Part shown: piece after piece, positions 2,312 through 18,465 of the stretch
Layout: each line of letters opens with the position of its first letter
Numbering within the stretch: position 1 is the first letter of the stretch
Source of the DNA: Pyrobaculum aerophilum str. IM2
GTDB taxonomy: Archaea > Thermoproteota > Thermoprotei > Thermoproteales > Thermoproteaceae
DNA length: 32,000 nt
NCBI RefSeq assembly: GCF_000007225.1
Contig: NC_003364.1
Span: forward strand, 1,620,001 to 1,652,000
Reading direction: 5' to 3'
Notes under the pieces: model-generated
Seen by the model: only the letters and a program-made list of their open reading frames with translations
Told to the model about the DNA's origin: nothing
The model's database searches: none
Position numbers and translations under genes: made by a program

Positions 2312-3157
2312 ATGGCTGAAGTAATAGTGTCAACCGAATGGGTCCAGCAGAACTTAAACAATCCCAAGGTTAGGATTGTAGAAGTGGATTACGACCCCAC
2401 CACTGCTTACGACGCGTGGCACGTCCCAAACGCCATTTTAATAGCGTGGAAAGAATTGCGCCATCCCGTGCGGAGGGATTTCATAGAGCCTGCCGATTTC
2501 GAAAGGCTTATGTCTGAGAAGGGCATTTCCAACGACCACACAGTGGTCTTATACGGCGATTTTAACAACTGGTTTGCCACATACGCCTTCTGGCTTTTCC
2601 AGGCCTACGGCCATGAAGATGTGAGGATTATGGACGGGGGGAGAACTGCGTGGGCTAAAGAGGGCAGGCCCACGTCTAGAGAAAAGCCGAGCTTCCCCAA
2701 GACGCAGTACAAGGTTAGGCGAGTGGACTGGGGCTCTAGGAGGGCCTATCTTTGGGAAGTAATGCAAAAAGTACTACACGGCGAAGTTAAGAAAAACGTA
2801 ATTCTCGTCGACGTTAGAAGCCCGGCGGAGTACAGAGGCGAGATAACTGCGCCTCCTGAGTACGCCAACGAGCAGACTCAAGTGGGAGGCCACATACCCG
2901 GGGCAATTAACATCCCCTGGGGCCAGGCCGTGGATCCAGAGACGGGCAAGTTCAAACCGCCCGAGGTGTTAAGGCGCCTATACGAATCGGCCGGCGTGAC
3001 GCCCGACAAGGAGATTATAACATATTGCAGAATAGGGGAGAGGGCCGCCCACACTTGGTTTGTGCTTAAATACATTTTGAAATACCCAGCAGTGAGGGTA
3101 TACGACGGCTCTTGGGCCGAGTGGGGCAATTTAGTGGGCGCCCCAGTGGAAAAATAA
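2312..3157 (+). CDS. Thiosulfate/3-mercaptopyruvate sulfurtransferase (tandem rhodanese domains)
   Basis: Two-domain architecture. Active-site loop CRIGERAAHTW (CRxGxR type) lies in the C-terminal domain, and DVRSPAEYRGE is typical of the family. Confidence 0.88.
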   Translation: MAEVIVSTEWVQQNLNNPKVRIVEVDYDPTTAYDAWHVPNAILIAWKELRHPVRRDFIEPADFERLMSEKGISNDHTVVLYGDFNNWFATYAFWLFQAYGHEDVRIMDGGRTAWAKEGRPTSREKPSFPKTQYKVRRVDWGSRRAYLWEVMQKVLHGEVKKNVILVDVRSPAEYRGEITAPPEYANEQTQVGGHIPGAINIPWGQAVDPETGKFKPPEVLRRLYESAGVTPDKEIITYCRIGERAAHTWFVLKYILKYPAVRVYDGSWAEWGNLVGAPVEK

Positions 3158-3185
3158 TTTTTTCCCAGTGGAAAAATAATTTTTT
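3142..3185. repeat. Perfect 22-bp tandem duplication (CCCAGTGGAAAAATAATTTTTT x2) covering the rhodanese stop codon and a T-run
   Basis: Unit 1 is 3142-3163 and unit 2 is 3164-3185, identical at every position. The last base of copy 2 is part of the stop codon of the convergent Rieske gene. Confidence 0.9.
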
Positions 3186-3535
3186 CACACCTCCACCTCT
3201 ATCCACCCCTCGTTTTCTCTGATGGGATAGGTCCTCACCCCCATTTTTTCCTTAGGCGCGTTAGGCGCCACGTAGGGAGGCTCTAACATTGCGCCTGTCC
3301 TTAAGTCAAACACGGCGTGGTGGCACGGGCACTTGACTGTGAGATTGGCCGGATCGAGAATTCCCAGAATACACTTGGCGTGTGTACACACGGCGTCTAT
3401 GGCATACAGCCTCCCCTCCACATACGCCATGAACACGACTTTAGACTCAACCCCGGCCTCAGTCTTGACGTCTATTTTAACCGCGGCGGAGCCGGCCTTT
3501 TGCAACGCCGCCGCCGAGATAGTCCTCCTCCACAT
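3185..3535 (-). CDS. Small Rieske [2Fe-2S] domain protein
   Basis: CTH...(16 aa)...CPCH Rieske signature. I set the start to ATG 3535 (MWRRTISAAAL...) because the palindromic TATA element 3556-3565 lies about 25 nt upstream. The longer ORF to 3697 would run through the promoter. Confidence 0.8.
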   Translation of the reverse strand: MWRRTISAAALQKAGSAAVKIDVKTEAGVESKVVFMAYVEGRLYAIDAVCTHAKCILGILDPANLTVKCPCHHAVFDLRTGAMLEPPYVAPNAPKEKMGVRTYPIRENEGWIEVEV

Positions 3536-7705: not shown

Positions 7706-7810
7706 AAAAGGCGATTTGCTACATTGCTTAACACATATTCGCGGCTGACGAGAAAGGGACAGCGCCTTAACCGTAGCAGAAGACTTTTAAATGGCGCGGA
7801 GTTGATATTT

Positions 7811-8143
7811 ATGGCAAAGGTGGCTGTTGTGGTGGTGTCTGACGACGAGAAGTTCGACTTAGCTTTAATGTTCGCATACCGTTCATATATAAATAAGAGG
7901 TTTTCAGATCTTAAAGTGCTCTTTTTCGGCCCAAGCCAGAGAAGGTTGGCGAAACTCGAAGGGGAAAATTTGAAAATTTTGTCGGAGCTCGTGCAAGCTG
8001 GCGTAGTCGACTCGGCGTGTGTTAGATACGCAGAAAACTGGGGTCTTTCTGAAGAGATTACGAAAAGGGGCGTGAGGCTTGCCTCCTTTGGTGAGAGACT
8101 AGCCGCGTTGTTAAACGACGGATACTACACAATTACTTTTTAA
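7811..8143 (+). CDS. DsrE/DsrF-like small protein (family assignment tentative)
   Basis: MAKVAVVVVSDDEKFDLALMFA... has a Rossmann-like N-terminus typical of DsrE-fold proteins. A CTTTTAAATGG TATA-like element lies about 24 nt upstream of ATG 7811. The longer ORF from 7724 is unsupported. Confidence 0.5.
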   Translation: MAKVAVVVVSDDEKFDLALMFAYRSYINKRFSDLKVLFFGPSQRRLAKLEGENLKILSELVQAGVVDSACVRYAENWGLSEEITKRGVRLASFGERLAALLNDGYYTITF

Positions 8144-9884: not shown

Positions 9885-10874
9885 TTAACCGCCTCGTAGT
9901 TTTAAAATGTAATTATACGCCGAATACGCGGCTATTGCGCCGTGGGCGGCGGCTATTTGAATTTGTTTAAACCCCCTCGGCATTGCAGATGTACAATCGC
10001 CGGCGGCGAATAAACCCGGTATATTTGTCTCCATCGCCTCGTTTACTTTAACGTATCCGTCGTCGGTTGTAATTAGGCCGATCCTTTTAAAAAACTCCGC
10101 AGGCGGCTCCGCGCCGATTTCTATAAAAATTCCGTCTATTTTCAAAACCCCCTCCTCGCCGGTATCCGTCCTTTTTATTACAGCCTCTCTAAGCGCCTTA
10201 TCGCCACGCAACTCTTTTACGATTGTATTCCACAAAATTTCAATTTTCTCGTGGTTTAAGAGCTTCTGATAATGCGGCTGAGCCCTCAGTCTATCCCTTT
10301 TGTGAATTAGATATATTTTCGAGGCGTAATTTGTGAGCAATAAGGCGGCTTGCGCCGCGGCGTCGCCGCCGCCCATGACGGCTACCACTTTATCTCTAAA
10401 GAGGGGTGCGTCGCAAGGGGCGCAGTAACTCACCCCTCTTGCGTTAAACTCCTCCTCCCCTGGCACGCCTAGTTTTTTCCTACGCTCCCCAACGGCGATA
10501 ATCGCCGTTAAGCTACGAAAATCTCCGCTGTTCTCCGTCTTAATAACAAAACTACCGCCGTCTCGCCGAATATCCTCTACCTTATCCAATAGGATGGAGA
10601 CGCCGTATTTCCTAACGTGAGATTCAAATACTCTGGCTAACTCGGGGCCTTGTACGCTTCGGAAGCCGAGGTAATCCTCGATTAACCCCGCCTTTGTTAA
10701 CTGACCGCCTACATCTTCTGTTATAATAAGTGTATTTAAACCGAAACGTGTGGCGTACATAGCGGCTGCAAGCCCTGCGGGACCTCCCCCCACTATAATT
10801 ACATCTAACAACTGGCTCCCAACGGCTTCTAGGACGTCTTGGGCCAACGTGATTCTCCTTAAATCAAGTTTCAC
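9885..10874 (-). CDS. trxB: Thioredoxin reductase (FAD/NAD(P)H pyridine nucleotide-disulfide oxidoreductase)
   Basis: DVIIVGGGPAGL, redox-active CAPCD, GGGDAAAQAALLL and GDCTS motifs. I prefer the GTG 10874 start because a CTTATATC TATA-like element at about 10893-10900 lies inside the longer ORF that starts at 10907. Confidence 0.85.
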   Translation of the reverse strand: MKLDLRRITLAQDVLEAVGSQLLDVIIVGGGPAGLAAAMYATRFGLNTLIITEDVGGQLTKAGLIEDYLGFRSVQGPELARVFESHVRKYGVSILLDKVEDIRRDGGSFVIKTENSGDFRSLTAIIAVGERRKKLGVPGEEEFNARGVSYCAPCDAPLFRDKVVAVMGGGDAAAQAALLLTNYASKIYLIHKRDRLRAQPHYQKLLNHEKIEILWNTIVKELRGDKALREAVIKRTDTGEEGVLKIDGIFIEIGAEPPAEFFKRIGLITTDDGYVKVNEAMETNIPGLFAAGDCTSAMPRGFKQIQIAAAHGAIAAYSAYNYILKLRGG

Positions 10875-11048
10875 ACACTTACCACGTTGTGTAGATATAA
10901 GGATCAATTTATCGCGATTTCAATTGGCATTAAGCGCTTTGTATACATATAATGTAAAGACAAAACTTATCAAAAATATTTTTATAAAATTCATTTATTT
11001 AATACTTATTAAAAAAGTAAATTATTAATATAAAAACTAATAAACTAT

Positions 11049-11228
11049 CTAGTGGTGGTGCGGCATTCCTTGCGGCCCGTGTTTTAAGTAATGCTCTGGG
11101 TTTTTTTCAAATGCTTCTTTACACAGAGAGGAGCAGAAGTAGTACACCTTCCCCTTATACAAAGTTTTATAGCTTGCCGTGGAGGGATCTACCTCCATAC
11201 CGCATACTGGGTCAATTTCTTTGTGCAT
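11049..11228 (-). CDS. YHS/TRASH-domain metal-binding mini-protein (59 aa, below the ORF-track cutoff)
   Basis: Hand translation: MHKEIDPVCGMEVDPSTASYKTLYKGKVYYFCSSLCKEAFEKNPEHYLKHGPQGMPHHH*. It carries the DPVCGM...YYFCS..C..F...P..Y pattern of YHS/TRASH domains and a His-rich tail. Confidence 0.8.
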   Translation of the reverse strand: MHKEIDPVCGMEVDPSTASYKTLYKGKVYYFCSSLCKEAFEKNPEHYLKHGPQGMPHHH

Positions 11229-11264
11229 AGATAATAAAAAAGTGTTTATTTAAAAAATTAATGT

Positions 11265-11861
11265 TCAACCTTCAACCTCGCCGAGGTACTTACCGTGCCA
11301 ACTGTGGAACCAGACAGCGCCGTTGTAGCCGTTTACGCTGAGCATTTGCATATCGCCGCCTATTTTAAAGTGGAAGGTGTAATAGCCGGGGAAGACGTAC
11401 GCCTCTTCAATCTCGGCGCCTGGGAAATATTTAGCCAACCACCTCTCAGCTATAGACCTCGCCTCCTCTTCTGTAATCCTCATTGGAGCTCCGTACCACA
11501 TCATTGACTGCGGCTCTGGGTGTATAAAGCCGTTGGGAAATACTAAAATTTCGTATTGAGGCTTCTCGCCGATGCCGATAATTACGTAGTAACTGTTACT
11601 ATATTTCTCTATAGAAATTACATCGTACCCGGTCCTTTGTTTTACATACTCCCCTACATTACTGTCATTGACATTGGCTATGCCGCCCCACCAACCCATC
11701 ATTGGACAGCCGCCCATCATGCCGCCCCACCAATTAGCCTCACTCCCCCAGCCATATGTTGGACCTCCCCACATTGCCTGTGTGAATACCACTATAGCTA
11801 CTATAGAGGCTACTACAATTGTTATCGTCACCACCTTTAGTATTGTATTTTTGTTTTCCAT
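11265..11861 (-). CDS. Membrane-anchored PepSY-like protein with a Trp/Gly/Met-rich CPMM segment
   Basis: N-terminal TM helix, then MWGGPTYGWGSEANWWGGMMGGCPMMGWWGG. The C-terminal part (ITEEEARSIAERWL...MLSVNGYNGAVWFHSWHG) resembles PepSY. ATG 11861 lies about 26 nt from the GGTATATAC element; the alternative is GTG 11879. Confidence 0.7.
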   Translation of the reverse strand: MENKNTILKVVTITIVVASIVAIVVFTQAMWGGPTYGWGSEANWWGGMMGGCPMMGWWGGIANVNDSNVGEYVKQRTGYDVISIEKYSNSYYVIIGIGEKPQYEILVFPNGFIHPEPQSMMWYGAPMRITEEEARSIAERWLAKYFPGAEIEEAYVFPGYYTFHFKIGGDMQMLSVNGYNGAVWFHSWHGKYLGEVEG

Positions 11862-11964
11862 GTCTGTATTTGAATTCACAAGTGTATATACCTCCCGTGA
11901 AACTCTCAGGCGGAACTAACGGCGTACAGACATAAACTCTTTTAATAAACATTGTTTCACTTCT

Positions 11965-12441
11965 GTGAGACTCGTCGTTTTAATAGCACTGGCGGTTATC
12001 ACAACGTTTTTACTGGATTATGTACACGTCAAGATCATGTGCCCATTTTGCCCATTTCCATCGCCCATGCTACCCGTATTTGCCCTTCTGACTATTCTTA
12101 CGGTTGCTATATTCTACTTTTTCCTATACGGATTTAAACCTGTCAAGACGCAACCCCAGGGATTGTACTTTATAATCGCTAACTTGTTAAGGGAACCCGA
12201 GCGGTCTATTTACATAAAGGTGTATGAAAAGGGGGGCGAGGCCCAACTTTCAGAGGTGGCTAAAGAGCTTGGCTTAAGAAAACTAAGAGCTTGGAGGGCC
12301 GCCCAAAGGCTGGCGGAGAAAAAACTCGTGGTTTTAGATAAAAAAGCTGGTAGGTTAGTGGTGAGGCTGAGGCCCCTTGAAGAGCTGTCTGTACAACCAA
12401 TAAACCGCCAGAATTATAAACGCGATAAACAGAACGAATAG
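11965..12441 (+). CDS. Membrane-anchored winged-helix DNA-binding protein with a CPFCPFP motif
   Basis: Two N-terminal hydrophobic helices flank HVKIMCPFCPFPSPM. The C-terminal part GGEAQLSEVAKELGLRKLRAWRAAQRLAEKKLVVLDKKAGRLVVRL looks like a MarR/TrmB-type wHTH. GTG start lies about 20 nt after TTTTAATAAAC. Confidence 0.7.
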   Translation: MRLVVLIALAVITTFLLDYVHVKIMCPFCPFPSPMLPVFALLTILTVAIFYFFLYGFKPVKTQPQGLYFIIANLLREPERSIYIKVYEKGGEAQLSEVAKELGLRKLRAWRAAQRLAEKKLVVLDKKAGRLVVRLRPLEELSVQPINRQNYKRDKQNE

Positions 12442-12597
12442 TATAAAGCCAAATATCATCCATAGAAATCCCCACCACCCCATCCCCGGCCCCCACCATC
12501 CGCCCCACCAGCTGCCGCACATTGGACACTGGGCGTATGCAAATATAGTCAGCCCAAGCATTATTCCCACTAACAGTATTGGAGTTCTCATAGGCAT
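12355..12597 (-). CDS. 80-aa two-TM protein with an extracytoplasmic CPMCGSWWGGWWGPGMGWWG loop
   Basis: TM1, then the motif, then TM2. The motif is shared with the PepSY protein. A TTTATATTATT element lies just upstream of ATG 12597. Its 3' end overlaps the convergent wHTH gene by 87 nt. Confidence 0.65.
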   Translation of the reverse strand: MPMRTPILLVGIMLGLTIFAYAQCPMCGSWWGGWWGPGMGWWGFLWMIFGFILFVLFIAFIILAVYWLYRQLFKGPQPHH

Positions 12598-12710
12598 GAA
12601 TTACCAGTAATAATATAAATGCTCTCTGAAAATGCCCTTCTGTAAGGGTTTCACCACGTTGAAACAGAGATTTCACATAATTTAGATATTATGGGGTTTT
12701 CTCACAACAT

Positions 12711-13220
12711 ATGGCTCAAAGAAGATATCGTGTAAAAAAAGCTGGGTACCGTAAATACGTCTTTCTTGTCGCCGCTGTTGTAATAGCAATCTTGTCCGTC
12801 GTGGTAGCGATCTCGGCGCTAAAACTAATTAGCATTAAAGGCGGCGTTACCAATTACACCGCAACAAAGGCACTCTTTTACTACTCTCCGCCGTGTGGCT
12901 GTTGCGATATTTATTTGCAAAAATTAAAATCTCTTTTAGACATTGAGATAAAGGCTGTGTCTCCAGATGAGTTTTTAACGCTAAAAAGAGACATGGGTAT
13001 TCCAGAGAGCTTGCAGTCATGTCACACAATTGTCATTAACGGCAAGTATATCGAGGGTCACGTTCCCATATTGGCCGTCGCCGTTTTTGTCAACGGCGGC
13101 TTTGGAGAAGATGTGAAAGGGCTAGCCTTGCCACATAGAGAGTCAGATCCCAATACGTGGGAGGGGCCAGGATATTACGTTGTGTATAAAAACGGCACTA
13201 TATGGCGCGTCTACTCTTAA
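12711..13220 (+). CDS. Membrane-anchored DUF411/CopG-family copper-resistance protein
   Basis: N-terminal TM anchor, then YYSPPCGCCDIY...SCHTIVINGKYIEGHVP. This is the CxCC / CH / GHVP pattern of DUF411 (CopG). Confidence 0.8.
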   Translation: MAQRRYRVKKAGYRKYVFLVAAVVIAILSVVVAISALKLISIKGGVTNYTATKALFYYSPPCGCCDIYLQKLKSLLDIEIKAVSPDEFLTLKRDMGIPESLQSCHTIVINGKYIEGHVPILAVAVFVNGGFGEDVKGLALPHRESDPNTWEGPGYYVVYKNGTIWRVYS

Positions 13221-14227
13221 TTATATTAATTTTAGTTATAGTCTTAAAGGCAAGCAATGTCACTGTAGTATACTTCTGGCAACCCGGATGTCTAGGTTGT
13301 AAATATATGGAGGAGGTTGTATTTCTCGATCCCAAAGTAAAGTCCTTTCTTTCAAATATAAATTTCGAAAAGGTAGATATACGTGTAGTACAATCTATAG
13401 AGGGTTATATAGAGAGAATCGTAGTAGCACAGGGAGTAGCCTTGACATATATAAACGGCACATTTAAGGCATCAGGTAATTTACAAATGCGAATACTAGA
13501 AGTTAATAATTACGGCCGTATCCCTATTATCGGCACGCCTACTATTGTCGTTTTAGAGGTGGTGTCGGGGAAAAGATACATTAAGGGTTATCTCCTTGGC
13601 GCTTTGCCGCCCGATAAATTTCTTCTGTTTTTAAACGCTTCATTAACAAGAACAGAAATTGGCAAAGAGGCGGAAGATTTTCTACCTATAGTCCTCCTAT
13701 TTGTCGTTGTGCTGGGCGTAGCGTCTGCCATATCGCCGTGCGTTGTGCTACCCCTTGCAGTGGCTACTTCAAGGAGAAGGCTGGCTTATTTTTCCATTGG
13801 AGGTTTTTCGGGTTATGTCGCTTGGTCAGCTGCGTTGACTCTGTTCGGGTCGCCTATTGTTCTAGACAGATATCTCTCCACAGTTCTAATAATCCTACTA
13901 GGGGTTATGTACTTAATAGGCGCCCGAGGGCCTTATTGGAGAGTACAAACTTTTTTCCACAGAGTTGCGAAGGGATCTGACTTTCTCGCCGGCTTGTTTA
14001 TGCCGTTTATATCGCTTCCTTGTTTTATCCCCCTTTTCGGTATCGCCGGCGTTTTATCAATGGCGTTATTCGCCTCCCCTATGGAGAGGTTTTTGACTTT
14101 TTTCCTATTTGGCGCTACGCATACACTAGTAGTCTCTTTAATAAGCGCCATATTGAAATTACACAAATACCATGTATACATAACCCCGATTTTAATCGTC
14201 ATGGCTTTACTTTTACTATTTATCTAA
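13202..14227 (+). CDS. Thioredoxin-fold domain fused to a CcdA/DsbD-type transmembrane thiol:disulfide electron transporter
   Basis: Signal/TM segment, then VVYFWQPGCLGCKYM (CxxC). The C-terminal polytopic part has SPC (AISPCVVLPL) and LPC (ISLPCFIPLFG) motifs like CcdA/DsbD. It overlaps the CopG-like gene by 19 nt. Confidence 0.78.
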   Translation: MARLLLIILILVIVLKASNVTVVYFWQPGCLGCKYMEEVVFLDPKVKSFLSNINFEKVDIRVVQSIEGYIERIVVAQGVALTYINGTFKASGNLQMRILEVNNYGRIPIIGTPTIVVLEVVSGKRYIKGYLLGALPPDKFLLFLNASLTRTEIGKEAEDFLPIVLLFVVVLGVASAISPCVVLPLAVATSRRRLAYFSIGGFSGYVAWSAALTLFGSPIVLDRYLSTVLIILLGVMYLIGARGPYWRVQTFFHRVAKGSDFLAGLFMPFISLPCFIPLFGIAGVLSMALFASPMERFLTFFLFGATHTLVVSLISAILKLHKYHVYITPILIVMALLLLFI

Positions 14228-14751
14228 AGGCGCACCAAGAGGTTACATCAGCAACGCGAGGAGAGCCTCAATAGCGTGACTAAAAGTTCGGAACAAAGGG
14301 GCTTATTGATCGCGAGGCGCTGTTAAAAGTCTTGTACTGTTTCGGCAAAGCGTAACTTAGAGTTGGGAGTAGTTAAGAGGTAGGCCGACCGCCACGTGGA
14401 CTCAAGGGGCCGCCGGGCTGGGCTCGGGGTTATGCGAACACCTGCCTAGCCTCCATGGGCGGCCGCAGGTATCGTACCGGCGGCTTAGGCGACGCCGTCT
14501 GTAGTTGCCATCATCTGCGTCAAGCCCTGACGGAGAAGCCGCGCGGCTTTTCGGGACATGTCGAAAGCATTACCGTCAAAAATCGTACGTAAAAAAGGCG
14601 AGAATTCCGCAAAGAGATTTTTGTACTCCGTCTTATCGCTGATCGGCCTCGTGATATTATGGCGCCTTGGCCTCCTCTGATCTGTTGCCCCTATTTCCTC
14701 GCGGCGTTTATCTTGGCGCATAACGTCGTCGTGTTCGCGCTGTTGGCATCT

Positions 14752-14985
14752 ATGCCTAGATCCTTAGGCTACGCTACTTTATTCGCCGTCGTCGCGATGT
14801 TCACATTAATAGCGATCTTGTTGCCGCCGGCTGCCCTGGCGGGGTTCGTCTTGTTTGCTCCGTTGAAGCTATCGGCGTACGTCCTAGCCGTGGGGAGGAG
14901 TATAAAGATGGGAGTAGTTGTGCTGATAATATCGGCGTTGTTAGAGGCGCGCGTGATAATGGATGCGTGCTCCACCGCCCATTAG
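14752..14985 (+). CDS. Hypothetical small membrane protein (weak call)
   Basis: MPRSLGYATLFAVVAMFTLIAILLPPAALAGFVLFAPLKL... has 2-3 hydrophobic helices and no recognisable family. It competes with the minus-strand ORF 14485-14721. Confidence 0.25.
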   Translation: MPRSLGYATLFAVVAMFTLIAILLPPAALAGFVLFAPLKLSAYVLAVGRSIKMGVVVLIISALLEARVIMDACSTAH

Positions 14986-15105: not shown

Positions 15106-15507
15106 TTATTGTGCCGCCAGCCTTACCAGTAAAGTTTCGACGTCTATAGCGCCTTTCGTCTTGGCCAGTAGCTCGCGGTCTTGCGTCACCAAGACTAGTC
15201 CGGAGGACTCCGCCACGTAGGCGTAGCTGGCGTCGTAGAAGGTCAAGCCCCGCTCCACGGCCACCCTCAAGACCTCGTCTAGGGGCGGGTCCTCCAACAC
15301 CTTGAAGCTGGACAACACCTTTTTCAAATGCCGAGACGCGGCGGCCCAGTCCACTCTCCCGAGCCTCGCCTCTTTCCACAACGCGTTGCCTGCCTCGTAT
15401 ATGGTCAAGTGCAGAATGGCCAGTTTCTCCCTATGTTTGATCCACTTGTCGTAATGGGCCGCGAGGGCGTATAGCGCGGAGGCGTCCACTAGGTACTCAA
15501 CGGGCAT
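15106..15507 (-). CDS. vapC: PIN-domain ribonuclease toxin VapC
   Basis: MPVEYLVDASALYAL (first acidic residue), FYDASYAYVA and LVTQDRELL motifs. It overlaps the upstream antitoxin gene by 11 nt. Confidence 0.88.
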   Translation of the reverse strand: MPVEYLVDASALYALAAHYDKWIKHREKLAILHLTIYEAGNALWKEARLGRVDWAAASRHLKKVLSSFKVLEDPPLDEVLRVAVERGLTFYDASYAYVAESSGLVLVTQDRELLAKTKGAIDVETLLVRLAAQ

Positions 15508-15721
15508 TTCGCGCCTCCCTCACCGCTTCCACCCACTCCCTCTCCGAGATGCCCGACAGCGCCCTCCTCAGCTCCTCCAGCGATTTCGCGAGCTCCTCTT
15601 CCTCGCGCCTTTTGATCTCTTCCTCCAGCGCCCTCTCGACCACCCTCCTGATATCTATACCCAGCCGTTTGGCCTTCTCCTTCAACTCCCTCCTCACTCT
15701 TACGCTGATGATGACTGACAC
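15497..15721 (-). CDS. vapB: VapB-type antitoxin (ribbon-helix-helix)
   Basis: The N-terminus SVIISVRVRRELKEKAKRLGIDIRRVVERALEEEI is typical of RHH. GTG start; gene pair with vapC. Confidence 0.8.
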   Translation of the reverse strand: MSVIISVRVRRELKEKAKRLGIDIRRVVERALEEEIKRREEEELAKSLEELRRALSGISEREWVEAVREARNAR

Positions 15722-16080: not shown

Positions 16081-18465
16081 ATGATATGTTGTGTGATGGA
16101 AATATCAGTTGGGCTTAAGGTCAAGGGGCGCGAGACCGTGTTGAAAATTTTGGGCATGCACTGCGCCACTTGTTCTTTAACAGTACAAAAGGCCCTTCTC
16201 TCTGTGCCGGGGGTAAAGTGGGCTGAGGCATCGCTTGCGAGCAACGAGGCGAAGCTAGTTGTTGACCCAGAGGCCTTGGACTACTCCGAGTTGCTCAAGG
16301 CAGTGAGGCGCGTTGGCTACGACGTCTTTAGAGAATCTGCGTATATCGCCGCTGAGTTCCGGCCTGAGGAGGCCGAGGCGGCGGAGAGGCGGGTTAGGGG
16401 CTGGGGGGTGTTTTATGCCAAGGCCAACCCCGCCACCGGCGTCATTTACGTGGAATACAACCCGCTGGAGTTAGACGCGGACATGGTTGCTAAACGCTTA
16501 GAGGAGGCCGGGTATAAGGTGAGGGAGGTTAAGAAGGGCGACGTCGAGGTGGACGTAGATAGACGCGTCGCGGAGCTGGAGGCGAGGGACATAAGGCGGA
16601 GGCTTATACCAGCCGTCTTGATATCCACAGTTCTGGCTCCAACGATGTTGGGGATTAAGGTAGTGCCTCCGCTGGCGCAAATGGCCTTGACGGCAATAGT
16701 GCAATTCTACTCCGGGTGGAGGTTTATATCAGGCGCGGCGAGGGCCTTTAGGAATAAGACGGCGAATATGGACACGCTAGTCACGTTGGGCACTTTAAGC
16801 GCCTTTCTCTACAGCTCATACGCCGTATTCTCCGGGGAGCCTACTTTCTTTGAGGTCTCTGCCGTGATCATCACATTTATACTGGCTGGGAGATACATCG
16901 AGATTTTAATGAAGTTGCGCACAGGAGACGCCGTTAGGAAACTGGCGCAGCTCCAGCCCCCCAAGGCTAGAGTTAAGAGGGGGGACGAGTGGGTGGAGGT
17001 AAACGCCTCTGAGGTAAAGCCCGGCGAGGTCGTGGAGGTGAGAGAGGGCGAAAGAATACCAGTTGACGGCTATGTCGACGAGGGGGCCGGGGCCGTGGAC
17101 GAGTCGGCGTTTACCGGCGAGCCGCTTCCAGTGGAGAAAAAAGCCGGCGACTTAGTCCTGGCGGGCACCGTATTAATTAAGGGAAGGCTTTTAATAAGGG
17201 CGACGAGGACGGGAGGGGCCACCTATTTGGCGGAGGTGGTTAAACTCGTGAGGCAGGCCCAAAACGCCAGGTTGCCTATACAGAGACTCGTCGATAGGGT
17301 ATCCGGCGTTTTTACCTGGGCAGTAATGGGAGTGGCTACGGCGACCTTCGCCGCGTGGATAGCCCTGGGCGCTCCCGTTTGGCAGGCCCTCATGTTCGCA
17401 GTTGCCGTCCTCGTCGTGGCGTGTCCATGCGCTCTAGGTCTAGCCACGCCGCTCGCTATAGTTGTAGGCGTCGGCAGAGCCGCCGAGAAGGGTCTATTAA
17501 TTAAAAACCCCGAGGCTATTGAAAAGGCGCTGAGGGCAAAGTTCGTTGCTTTTGACAAAACCGGCACTCTCACCGCCGGCGCTCCCAAAGTCGTGAAGTA
17601 CGTGGGGGATGAACACGCACTTGCCCTGGCGGCGTCGGCTGAGGCGAAGTCTTCCCACCCCATCGGAGTTGCAGTGGTGGAATTCGCCATAAAGAGGGGG
17701 GCAAAGCTGGCGGAGCCTGAGGCTTATGACACGTTCCCCGGCATGGGCGTATACGCCAAAGTCAACGGGGCTGTCGTGGGGATCGGCAATGAAAAGCTAG
17801 TCGAGGGTATGGGGGCAGAGATCCCAGGGGAGATCCGCCGCGAGGCGGAGAGATACCGGGCAGAGGGCTACACAGTGGCGTATATTGTCGTAGACGGAAG
17901 AGTGAGGGGGTTTGTGGTAGTGGGCGACGAGATTAGGCAAGAGGCGCGGGACGTAGTGGAGAGGTTGAAGAGGTGGGGGTATCAGCCTGTGATAATTTCC
18001 GGCGACCACGAGGTTGCTGTGGCTAAAGTTGCGGAGAGGCTGGGCATTGGAAAATACTACGGCGGCAAAACCCCAGACGAGAAGGCAGAGATTGTGAAGG
18101 AGTTGAGAAAAGAGGGCGGGGTTATTTTCATAGGCGATGGGATTAACGACGCCCCAGCCTTGGCGTCGGCAGATATGGGCATAGCTGTGGCCACTGGGAC
18201 AGAAGTGGCGAAAGAGGCGGGAGACGTGGTGGTTAGAAGGGGCGATTTGTCTAAAGTGGCTGAATTTATTGACATCTCGAGGAAAATTATGAAAAACGCT
18301 AAATTCAACCTCTTCTGGGCTTTTGTCTACAACACCGCCCTTATACCCATATCCGCCGGCCTCTTCTACCCGGCGCTATACCTCAGGCCGGAGCTCGCCG
18401 GCTTGGCAATGGCGTTGAGTAGCATATCAGTTACTCTCAACTCCCTAAGGCTCAGAAGGGCGTAG
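16081..18465 (+). CDS. copA: Copper-translocating P1B-type ATPase CopA
   Basis: HMA domain [16 protein letters not shown] motif ([11 protein letters not shown]), DKTGTLT and [10 protein letters not shown]. The alternative start ATG 16096 fits the ATAAAAACTTATATC element better. Confidence 0.93.

Follow-up and report, generated by a model that had tools for sequence, protein, structure and literature searches.

Two membrane proteins encoded in a copper island of Pyrobaculum aerophilum str. IM2, one of 80 and one of 204 residues, each carry a short segment rich in Trp, Gly and Met that contains Cys-Pro-Met. Both genes lie in a 32,000-nucleotide stretch of NC_003364.1 (positions 1,620,001 to 1,652,000), referred to here as the window; coordinates given without a locus label are positions in it. 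The explanation that we prefer, on which our judgement is evenly balanced, is that the two segments are membrane-proximal, extracytoplasmic and largely unstructured stretches of soft metal ligands, belonging to two co-conserved accessory proteins of copper efflux, and that they relay Cu(I). A sequence-only reading of this DNA had pointed out the segments and suggested a Cu(I)-binding or membrane-interfacial motif; its observation was confirmed and its interpretation is partly supported. Judging from the sequences, both proteins probably handle Cu(I), and direct binding of Cu(I) by the segments is plausible. Both segments lie where that reading had placed them, as listed below (TM, transmembrane; ORF, open reading frame; dN/dS, ratio of non-synonymous to synonymous substitution rates).

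11265..11879, minus strand: membrane-anchored PepSY-like protein, 204 aa (ORF, sub-threshold Pfam match, AlphaFold2 model, Foldseek)
11682..11774, minus strand: linker MWGGPTYGWGSEANWWGGMMGGCPMMGWWGG of the PepSY-like protein (MWGG...GGCPMMGWWGG, directly after the anchor)
12355..12597, minus strand: small membrane protein, 80 aa (ORF and translation, orthologues, dN/dS, AlphaFold2 model, flanking charges)
12469..12531, minus strand: Cys/Trp/Gly-rich motif QCPMCGSWWGGWWGPGMGWWG of the small protein, in the ectodomain, N-terminal to the TM helix

Conservation and topology of the small protein

The small ORF is a real gene and its motif is under purifying selection, since its orthologues are conserved, its pairwise dN/dS is 0.11-0.46, and the non-synonymous sites of the motif are nearly unchanged. 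Between the window and locus L014, the motif columns contain 6 changes per 10.7 synonymous sites and 1 change per 52.3 non-synonymous sites; in pairwise comparisons of these columns, synonymous sites are near saturation and non-synonymous change amounts to about 0-3%. Conservation in orthologues had been proposed as a check on the motif, and AQCP(M)CG..WWGG is indeed invariant in the six Pyrobaculum-type orthologues, as are the TM helix and the sequence W-L-Y-R-Q..K-G.Q.H-H.

Five close relatives of the small ORF were found in a database of 5.8 billion sequences, and three Pyrobaculum genome records contain the gene: those of P. oguniense, P. arsenaticum and one P. aerophilum assembly. A genome scan with the small-protein alignment gave 64 pattern-matching stretches, of which P. 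oguniense was the sole confirmed one. Gene calling missed it in P. arsenaticum DSM 13514 and in the P. aerophilum assembly (GCA_003400145). Uncalled or mis-called copies are located as follows.

L009 9265-9504: small gene, uncalled
L010 9303-9524: small gene, uncalled
L013 about 7761-7988: small gene, called as a truncated 35-aa ORF

The layout of the protein is MPMRTPILLVGIMLGLTIFAYA-QCPMCGSWWGGWWGPGMGWWG-FLWMIFGFILFVLFIAFIILAVYWLY-RQLFKGPQPHH. It comprises a signal-peptide-like N-terminus (..AYA|Q), the ectodomain, a single TM helix and a cytoplasmic tail, YRQLFKGPQPHH, with the chain stopping 12 residues past the TM helix. The motif had been described as lying between two TM helices. One TM helix does follow it, but the first hydrophobic stretch resembles a signal peptide that can be cleaved off more than it does a TM helix: most family members have K/R in the n-region, the h-region is variable, Ala occupies position -1 in 10 of 11 members, and small residues occupy -3 and -1 in all 11. 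The protein is probably exported and cleaved after AYA, which would leave QCPMC... as the new N-terminus. A lipobox reading of ..YAQC was rejected, as Q is atypical at -1 and the family conforms to a signal peptidase I site of the AXA type. A match to the PA0050 family of NCBIfam was also set aside; it spans only the signal peptide, and its 18 bits fall short of the cut-off of 45. The motif itself matches no model in Pfam or NCBIfam.

In the AlphaFold2 model, helices at residues 5-22 and 40-73 (predicted local distance difference test, pLDDT, above 90 for the latter) flank a coil at residues 23-39 (pLDDT about 57). Neither motif segment, in this protein or in the PepSY-like protein, contains a charged residue, and K/R residues sit beyond the TM helix. 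On the strength of the uncharged segments, this charge distribution and the signal-peptide-like N-terminus, both segments are predicted to be outside the cell, adjacent to the membrane and flexible. The small protein (..GPQPHH) and a YHS protein of the island (..GMPHHH) both end in His runs, which are kept in their orthologues.

The PepSY-like protein and its linker

The 204-residue protein is a signal-anchored tandem PepSY-like protein whose linker ends in the recurrent G-C-P-M-x-G site of its family. An N-terminal TM anchor is followed by the Gly/Trp/Met-rich linker ending in CPM and by two PepSY-like alpha/beta modules, which together form the C-terminal 135 or so residues (67-204). Its score against the Pfam PepSY model (PF03413) is 16.8 bits (E = 0.0089), short of the gathering cut-off of 24; relatives score 19-21 bits or do not match, and a PDB sequence search with the PepSY-like profile returned no matches. 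AlphaFold2 predicts two helix-plus-sheet modules with pLDDT above 90 after a stretch, residues 36-66, with pLDDT below 50. The sequence-only reading had asked whether AlphaFold would show a structured loop; it shows none in either protein. The best Foldseek matches are the tandem-PepSY proteins 4EXR and 5BOI and are weak (E about 1e-2, TM-score 0.24-0.31).

Like established PepSY proteins (PF03413; for example the YpeB C-terminal domain, 5BOI, and CD1622, 4EXR), this family is predicted to be extracytoplasmic and membrane-anchored and to have tandem modules of alpha helix and beta sheet. A PepSY domain is an alpha helix packed on a four-stranded sheet, often in tandem, and the predicted modules may be of this kind. 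The family differs from them in its own invariant His/Met/Glu/Trp signature, in its Gly/Met-rich inserts and in the lack of any link to M4 peptidases at these loci. PepSY_TM proteins, which include CrpH, linked to copper in Bordetella, were set aside; that family is polytopic, and the protein described here has a single anchor.

Family members reach down to about 30% identity, and all have the anchor and a Gly/Met/Trp-rich linker. Most have a second Gly/Met/Trp-rich insert after PEPGPNMMWNTKYGHM, and the C-terminus is strongly conserved. Twenty positions are invariant: Y98, E110, E122, M127, W128, A140, A144, F163, Y166, Y167, T168, H170, M179, S181, V182, G187, H192, W194, H195 and G196. The 204-residue protein is 100% identical to one from a P. 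aerophilum assembly. Compared with the copy at L009 (9983-10696), the linker differs by 28 aa in frame, with the proteins otherwise about 98% identical; linker length is thus evolutionarily unstable.

Comparison of the two segments

The enrichment reported by the sequence-only reading is pronounced. Against a background of 16 window ORFs (5,728 aa), the two segments contain 19-29% Trp (background 1.5%), 33-36% Gly (8.4%) and 10-16% Met (1.9%). Taken alone, their resemblance exceeds chance only modestly. The Smith-Waterman score of the pair is modestly unusual relative to composition-preserving shuffles (p about 0.014), and the best-scoring alignment is not in the register originally proposed; given the composition, the occurrence of C-P-M in both segments has p of about 1.7e-4. 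Recent duplication or gene conversion between the two genes was rejected, as the longest identical DNA run is 11 nt and the similarity is what the W/G/M codons alone predict. Stronger evidence than the pairwise score comes from evolutionary conservation, which places the segments beyond chance.

The conserved cores differ between the two families: CPxC, CPC or CC in the small-protein family, and G-C-P-[ML]-x-G at the linker end in the PepSY-like family, where about 1/4 to 1/3 of the members have it. The sequence WWGG reflects composition at the level of Pyrobaculum, most relatives being Gly/Met/Pro-rich. The proposal of one shared element, CPM-x-G-(S)-WWGG, therefore does not hold.

These comparisons bear on the possibility that the motif is low-complexity sequence without meaning, such as a flexible stalk made by replication slippage, and that the resemblance is a coincidence of composition. 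The 28-aa linker indel between near-identical strains, the marginal shuffle statistic, the predicted disorder and the confinement of WWGG to Pyrobaculum would all fit such a stalk. It does not explain why the small-protein motif shows near-zero non-synonymous change against saturated synonymous change, why CPxC and CP[ML] are kept across domains of life, or why co-occurrence with copper genes is consistent. We consider this explanation highly improbable, and in its pure form it is largely refuted. The segment peptides of interest for Cu(I)/Ag(I) affinity are QCPMCGSWWGGWWGPGMGWWG and GGMMGGCPMMGWWGG.

Relatives and their association with copper genes

The order [thioredoxin-membrane fusion, DUF411 | small protein, regulator | PepSY-like protein] is kept in the Pyrobaculum contigs and genomes. 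CopA and YHS genes adjoin this cassette in L001 and L003, and a multicopper oxidase gene in L001. Another archaeal lineage (L013) has the mis-called small ORF 2 nt behind the PepSY-like gene; this ORF reads MLLPILLALTAAPAMACPWCGWGGAWGMMGWGWGGWWWFG, a TM helix and WLLKQ. The small family is rare, with 16 relatives at E < 1e-3 in an exhaustive HMMER search of 1.84 billion representatives. Nearly all small-sized relatives keep CPxC, CPC or CC, followed by (M)GWWG, the TM helix and WLxRQ.

The PepSY-like family is much more widely represented. At least 574 metagenome stretches encode a relative (574 of 600 among the matches listed), and 80 loci were analysed. The linkers contain 25% Gly, 12% Met, 10% Pro and 3.6% Trp. 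Cys occurs in 28 of 77 linkers and C-P in 21 of 77, typically as G-C-P-[ML]-[MFG]-G right before the first module. Distant lineages, too, have sites of the CP[ML] type just ahead of the first PepSY-like module: GCPMMG, GCPMFG, NCPLFG, GCPMGG and GCPCQG.

Of the 80 loci, 36 encode a small protein that has a single TM helix and a Gly/Met/Trp tail free of charged residues. Where enough upstream sequence was available (60 loci), 28 have a small ORF of this kind on the same strand directly upstream of the PepSY-like gene. The bacterial tail-plus-TM neighbours tested, as examples, match SHOCT with values of 1e-9 to 1e-5. A jackhmmer search from a SHOCT ORF recovered the Pyrobaculum small proteins at 1e-5 to 1e-9, and hhalign aligned the small family with the SHOCT set at 96% probability (E = 2.7e-9) over 33 columns (MGWWG, the TM helix and WLxRxL), scores that the TM helix and low-complexity sequence inflate.

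The SHOCT membrane proteins concerned (PF09851, e.g. WP_013156689.1 of Meiothermus taiwanensis) share with the Pyrobaculum protein an N-terminal tail that is uncharged, rich in Gly, Met and Trp, and in some cases contains CPWC or WWCG, a single TM helix followed by W-L-x-R-x-L, and a position adjoining a PepSY-like gene and P1B copper ATPases. The tail and TM helix are a feature of this subgroup and lie outside Pfam's model. The Pyrobaculum protein differs in having a signal-peptide-like N-terminal extension and far more Trp, and in lacking the C-terminal SHOCT domain (about 28 aa, with a conserved R..A.GEI); its sequence ends in the short cytoplasmic tail, and no SHOCT match was found in it even at E up to 5. 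It thus appears to be a SHOCT-less relative of the N-terminal Gly/Met/Trp tail and TM module of bacterial SHOCT proteins, and its motif a SHOCT-less, Trp-enriched and Cys-bearing Pyrobaculum form of a recurrent soft-ligand, low-complexity ectodomain segment. The sequence-only reading had recognised no described domain here. This stands as far as family models go, but the match to bacterial SHOCT proteins means that the tail and TM helix are not specific to archaea.

Proximity to cop and DUF411 genes, which the sequence-only reading had proposed as a check, recurs across genera and domains. Of the 29 loci of at least 8 kb, 20 hold a gene for a P1B ATPase, a YHS protein, a multicopper oxidase or a DUF411 protein. 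The ATPase gene lies less than 700 bp away on the same strand in 9 of 17 ATPase-bearing loci, and CPC or CPH is found in 17 of 19 ATPase ORFs longer than 500 aa. On plasmid pMtWR-220 of Meiothermus taiwanensis the gene order is DUF411, four-helix-bundle copper protein, multicopper oxidase, DUF302, SHOCT protein, PepSY-like protein, CopA, DUF305, HMA protein and metal-sensitive regulator; the SHOCT protein starts MGWCPWCSYGYGMMGGWGW and keeps a core of the CPxC type (MGWCPWC). A Streptomyces plasmid cluster contains SHOCT, PepSY-like, DUF305, DUF3105 and CopC genes. At L021, an ORF at 3087-3470 between the PepSY-like gene (linker SGCPCQGW) and the DUF411 gene encodes a 128-aa polytopic membrane protein with a WRGMMMPMMMWW loop, by its sequence seemingly a further Met/Trp-rich membrane partner in a cassette of this type.

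A literature search found nothing on these proteins except two passing mentions (PMC5498576, PMC10694973). SHOCT and DUF302 genes were noted beside copper islands in Cuniculiplasma and Mia14 (PMC5498576), and a Haloferax SHOCT membrane protein is induced by silver (PMC10694973). The paper describing SHOCT draws no copper link and gives the function of SHOCT proteins as unknown (PMC3581485).

The membrane-anchored regulator

Between the two motif-bearing proteins, on the opposite strand, lies the gene of a winged helix-turn-helix (wHTH) protein.

11965..12441, plus strand: membrane-anchored wHTH regulator, 158 aa (TM1, loop DYVHVKIMCPFCPFPSPM, TM2, wHTH)

The predicted outward loop between its two TM helices contains HVKIMCPFCPFPSPM, and the Cys pair of the loop (CPFC) is conserved in orthologues. 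The corresponding loop contains HCMGMMCG in Vulcanisaeta (L005-L007) and is Met/Trp/Gly-rich at L028. The wHTH domain is 40% identical to a Vulcanisaeta regulator of the MarR_2/DUF7343 type (E = 4e-12); Pfam matches were sub-threshold only. From its sequence, the protein may act as a one-component sensor for metal outside the cell.

The small gene and the regulator gene are convergent and overlap by 87 nt in the window (12355-12441, both strands), by 87-99 nt in Pyrobaculum (L001 8133-8219; L003 8136-8234) and by 4 nt in Vulcanisaeta. The Lys/Gln/Asn-rich tail of the regulator is encoded opposite the TM helix of the small protein.

This arrangement raises the possibility that the small protein is mainly a co-sensor or modulator of the regulator, resembling the small membrane proteins that modulate sensor kinases, and that its CPMC pair and the CPFC loop jointly detect copper or the redox state of thiols and so set the transcription of the island. 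The two genes are convergent neighbours at all Pyrobaculum loci, with the long overlap wherever it was measured, and the same convergent pair occurs in Vulcanisaeta-type loci without a PepSY-like gene. The regulators are homologous across the Pyrobaculum and Vulcanisaeta-type lineages, and a Cys pair lies in the predicted outward loop of both proteins. At L013 and in bacteria, however, the small or SHOCT protein pairs with a PepSY-like gene or CopA and no such regulator is present, and the convergent orientation means that the two genes are not co-transcribed. We regard co-sensing as quite unlikely to be the explanation; it is compatible with Cu(I) relay, and with the assembly role discussed below, rather than exclusive of them.

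The copper island and its surroundings

The remaining genes of the island, and the ATPase gene beyond it, are listed below.

9885..10907, minus strand: thioredoxin-disulfide reductase homologue at the island edge (TIGR01292, 331 bits, just below the cut-off of 343)
11049..11228, minus strand: YHS/TRASH-type metal-binding protein, 59 aa, ending in HHH (Pfam YHS, 5.9e-19)
12711..13220, plus strand: CopG/DUF411 homologue with signal anchor and CGCC motif (Pfam DUF411, 2.8e-10)
13202..14227, plus strand: thioredoxin-like domain (CLGC; Thioredoxin_2) fused to a polytopic membrane domain with SPC and LPC cysteines
16081..18465, plus strand: P1B-type copper ATPase (HMA MHCATC, CPC, DKTGT), about 2 kb past the thioredoxin fusion

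The CopG/DUF411 homologue aligns with the CopG structure 6WIS at 4.5e-9, with CGCC and SCHT..EGHVP aligned. It is the DUF411 member of the island; neither motif-bearing protein matches that family. The thioredoxin-membrane fusion is conserved in L001, L003 and L009, and in P. arsenaticum it appears fragmented into 122 and 44 aa (L010 8069-8558). The sequence-only reading had called this neighbour CcdA. That identity was not confirmed: no Pfam or PDB sequence match was found for the membrane half, and the protein is DsbD/CcdA-like by arrangement only.

The G+C content is 43-46% over the island (10000-14000) and 51-57% in the flanks, a dip consistent with horizontal acquisition. Between the island and copA, a PIN-domain ORF with an upstream 74-aa partner lies at 15106-15721 on the minus strand; the label is taken from a gene called PF01850 at the same position in L009. 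A hydrophobic 108-aa ORF (14659-14985, plus strand) is conserved, is shared with L009 and has no family match.

In the Vulcanisaeta-type loci, the small protein lies downstream of a membrane-anchored cupredoxin with a Tyr/Gly/Trp-rich linker and converges on the homologous regulator. These SoxE-like cupredoxins have an anchor followed by an extremely Tyr/Gly/Trp-rich linker (YYYYYYYGYYRGPGYY...WMWSWMWG). In two of the three Vulcanisaeta-type loci, tiny ORFs of 47-57 aa (MCMGH...coiled coil...HDH) lie between the cupredoxin and the small protein; their sequences suggest that they may be cytoplasmic Cys/His metal-binding peptides. One sequence, P0052, resembles the N-terminus of the cupredoxin fused straight to the small protein and is either a deletion variant or an assembly chimera.

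L005 5018-5827: SoxE-like cupredoxin
L006 5271-5999: SoxE-like cupredoxin
L007 485-1246: SoxE-like cupredoxin
L005 5838-6011: MCMGH...HDH ORF
L007 1252-1395: MCMGH...HDH ORF

Possible functional roles

Among established copper proteins, Cu(I) is bound by CxxC and by Met-rich motifs, a Trp in CusF makes a cation-pi contact, and CopG is an oxidoreductase that binds copper. In the Cu(I) relay that we prefer, Cu(I) pumped out by CopA would be caught at the membrane surface by the CPMC pair of the small protein and by the CPM/Met/Trp linker of the PepSY-like protein. The CPMC pair could provide bis-thiolate coordination, and the linker could add thioether and cation-pi contacts. The Trp/Gly collar of the small protein would sit at the membrane interface beside the TM helix, with the short basic tail in the cytoplasm. 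From there, Cu(I) would go to CopG/DUF411, and in sister loci to the multicopper oxidase, to be oxidised; the neighbouring membrane-bound regulator may likewise receive it, at its Cys/Met loop, and so sense it. The outward cysteines could be held reduced by the thioredoxin-like membrane fusion together with the thioredoxin reductase.

The segments share with generally known Mets and CxxC copper segments (inserts of the CueO/PcoA/CopA type, MxCxxC of Atx1/CopZ, and CusF) the soft-ligand chemistry of Cys, Met and Trp, an extracytoplasmic location, and a setting in copper islands beside CopG, CopA and, in sister loci, multicopper oxidase. In contrast to those, they have no ferredoxin-like or OB fold and are predicted to be disordered or interfacial, their spacing is unlike the classic MxxM repeats, and their carriers are two families without a described function. 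CPMC is reminiscent of an HMA/Atx1-type site, but there is no HMA match and the region is predicted to be coil. Likewise, neither segment forms a folded domain that could hold a CusF-type site (OB fold, Met2His capped by Trp), and the Trp/Met chemistry is the sole likeness. CopL is a membrane-tethered extracellular Cu(I)-binding lipoprotein of the cop operons of Staphylococcus and Bacillus. It offers a functional analogy only, as a surface-tethered copper binder encoded beside a copper ATPase in organisms without a CusCFBA system; it has folded DUF1541 domains, and no relationship in sequence or fold is expected.

The main rival to this relay gives the segments a role in interfacial assembly or anchoring: through a Trp collar and Gly packing, they would join the small protein to the PepSY-like protein and possibly to the regulator or CopA. 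The cysteines would then be structural or act as a redox switch, and the metal chemistry would be left to the His/Met/Glu residues of the PepSY-like protein or to CopG. The Gly/Trp runs meet the start of the TM helix exactly, the AlphaFold2 helix beginning at G40, and three protein types in these loci have aromatic or Gly-rich stretches next to a TM helix, including the Cys-free Tyr/Gly/Trp linker of the cupredoxin and the loop of the regulator. Cys is absent from most family members, the folded PepSY-like domain contains invariant H120, E122, M127, W128, H170, M179, H192 and H195, and the tight gene pairing suggests a physical complex. Nevertheless, the Met content of the linkers across the family is unexpected for pure packing but characteristic of segments that bind Cu(I), strong purifying selection acts on the invariant CPxC, and the presumed sensing loop of the regulator has a similar Cys/Met-rich sequence. 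On balance, we hold a purely interfacial role to be unlikely.

Several observations weigh against Cu(I) relay by the segments. Cys is absent from 49 of the 77 PepSY-like linkers and from most SHOCT tails, so it is not essential to the core function of the family, and Trp-richness is lineage-specific. No copper gene lies nearby at L013 (within 7 kb), at a second Streptomyces match, H2 (within 5 kb), or at 9 of the 29 long loci. AlphaFold2 shows no defined binding site in the segments, and the conserved His/Met/Glu of the PepSY-like domain could be the real functional site, with the linker a mere tether. The inflation of the profile scores that join the small family to SHOCT proteins also counts here. 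A redox-maintenance role is weakened by the fragmentation of the thioredoxin-membrane fusion in P. arsenaticum and by its membrane half not being recognisably CcdA.

Implications

To our knowledge, the recipient of Cu(I) outside the membrane after CopA is well described only for Gram-negative CusF and a few lipoproteins such as CopL. Two families annotated as 'hypothetical' or 'SHOCT domain-containing' now become testable candidates for accepting Cu(I) after CopA. Genetic linkage joins the two families, and connects both with copper ATPases, CopG and multicopper oxidases, in lineages as far apart as Thermoproteales, Thermales and Actinomycetes. The analysis also adds a conserved small gene that is missing from two NCBI Pyrobaculum gene sets, and it draws attention to a family of archaeal wHTH regulators, anchored in the membrane, that may detect extracellular metal through their Cys/Met loops.

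More broadly, and as a tentative and somewhat doubtful proposal, the small tail-plus-TM protein, whether it has a SHOCT domain or not, and its tandem PepSY-like partner might constitute an unrecognised but widespread extracytoplasmic acceptor or relay for Cu(I) at P1B ATPases. If so, the pair would dock at P1B pumps in archaea and in bacteria that apparently have no CusF/CusCBA route, and disordered, membrane-tethered brushes of soft ligands would take Cu(I) from the pump and pass Cu(I) to CopG or multicopper oxidase and, in Thermoproteales, to a wHTH sensor.

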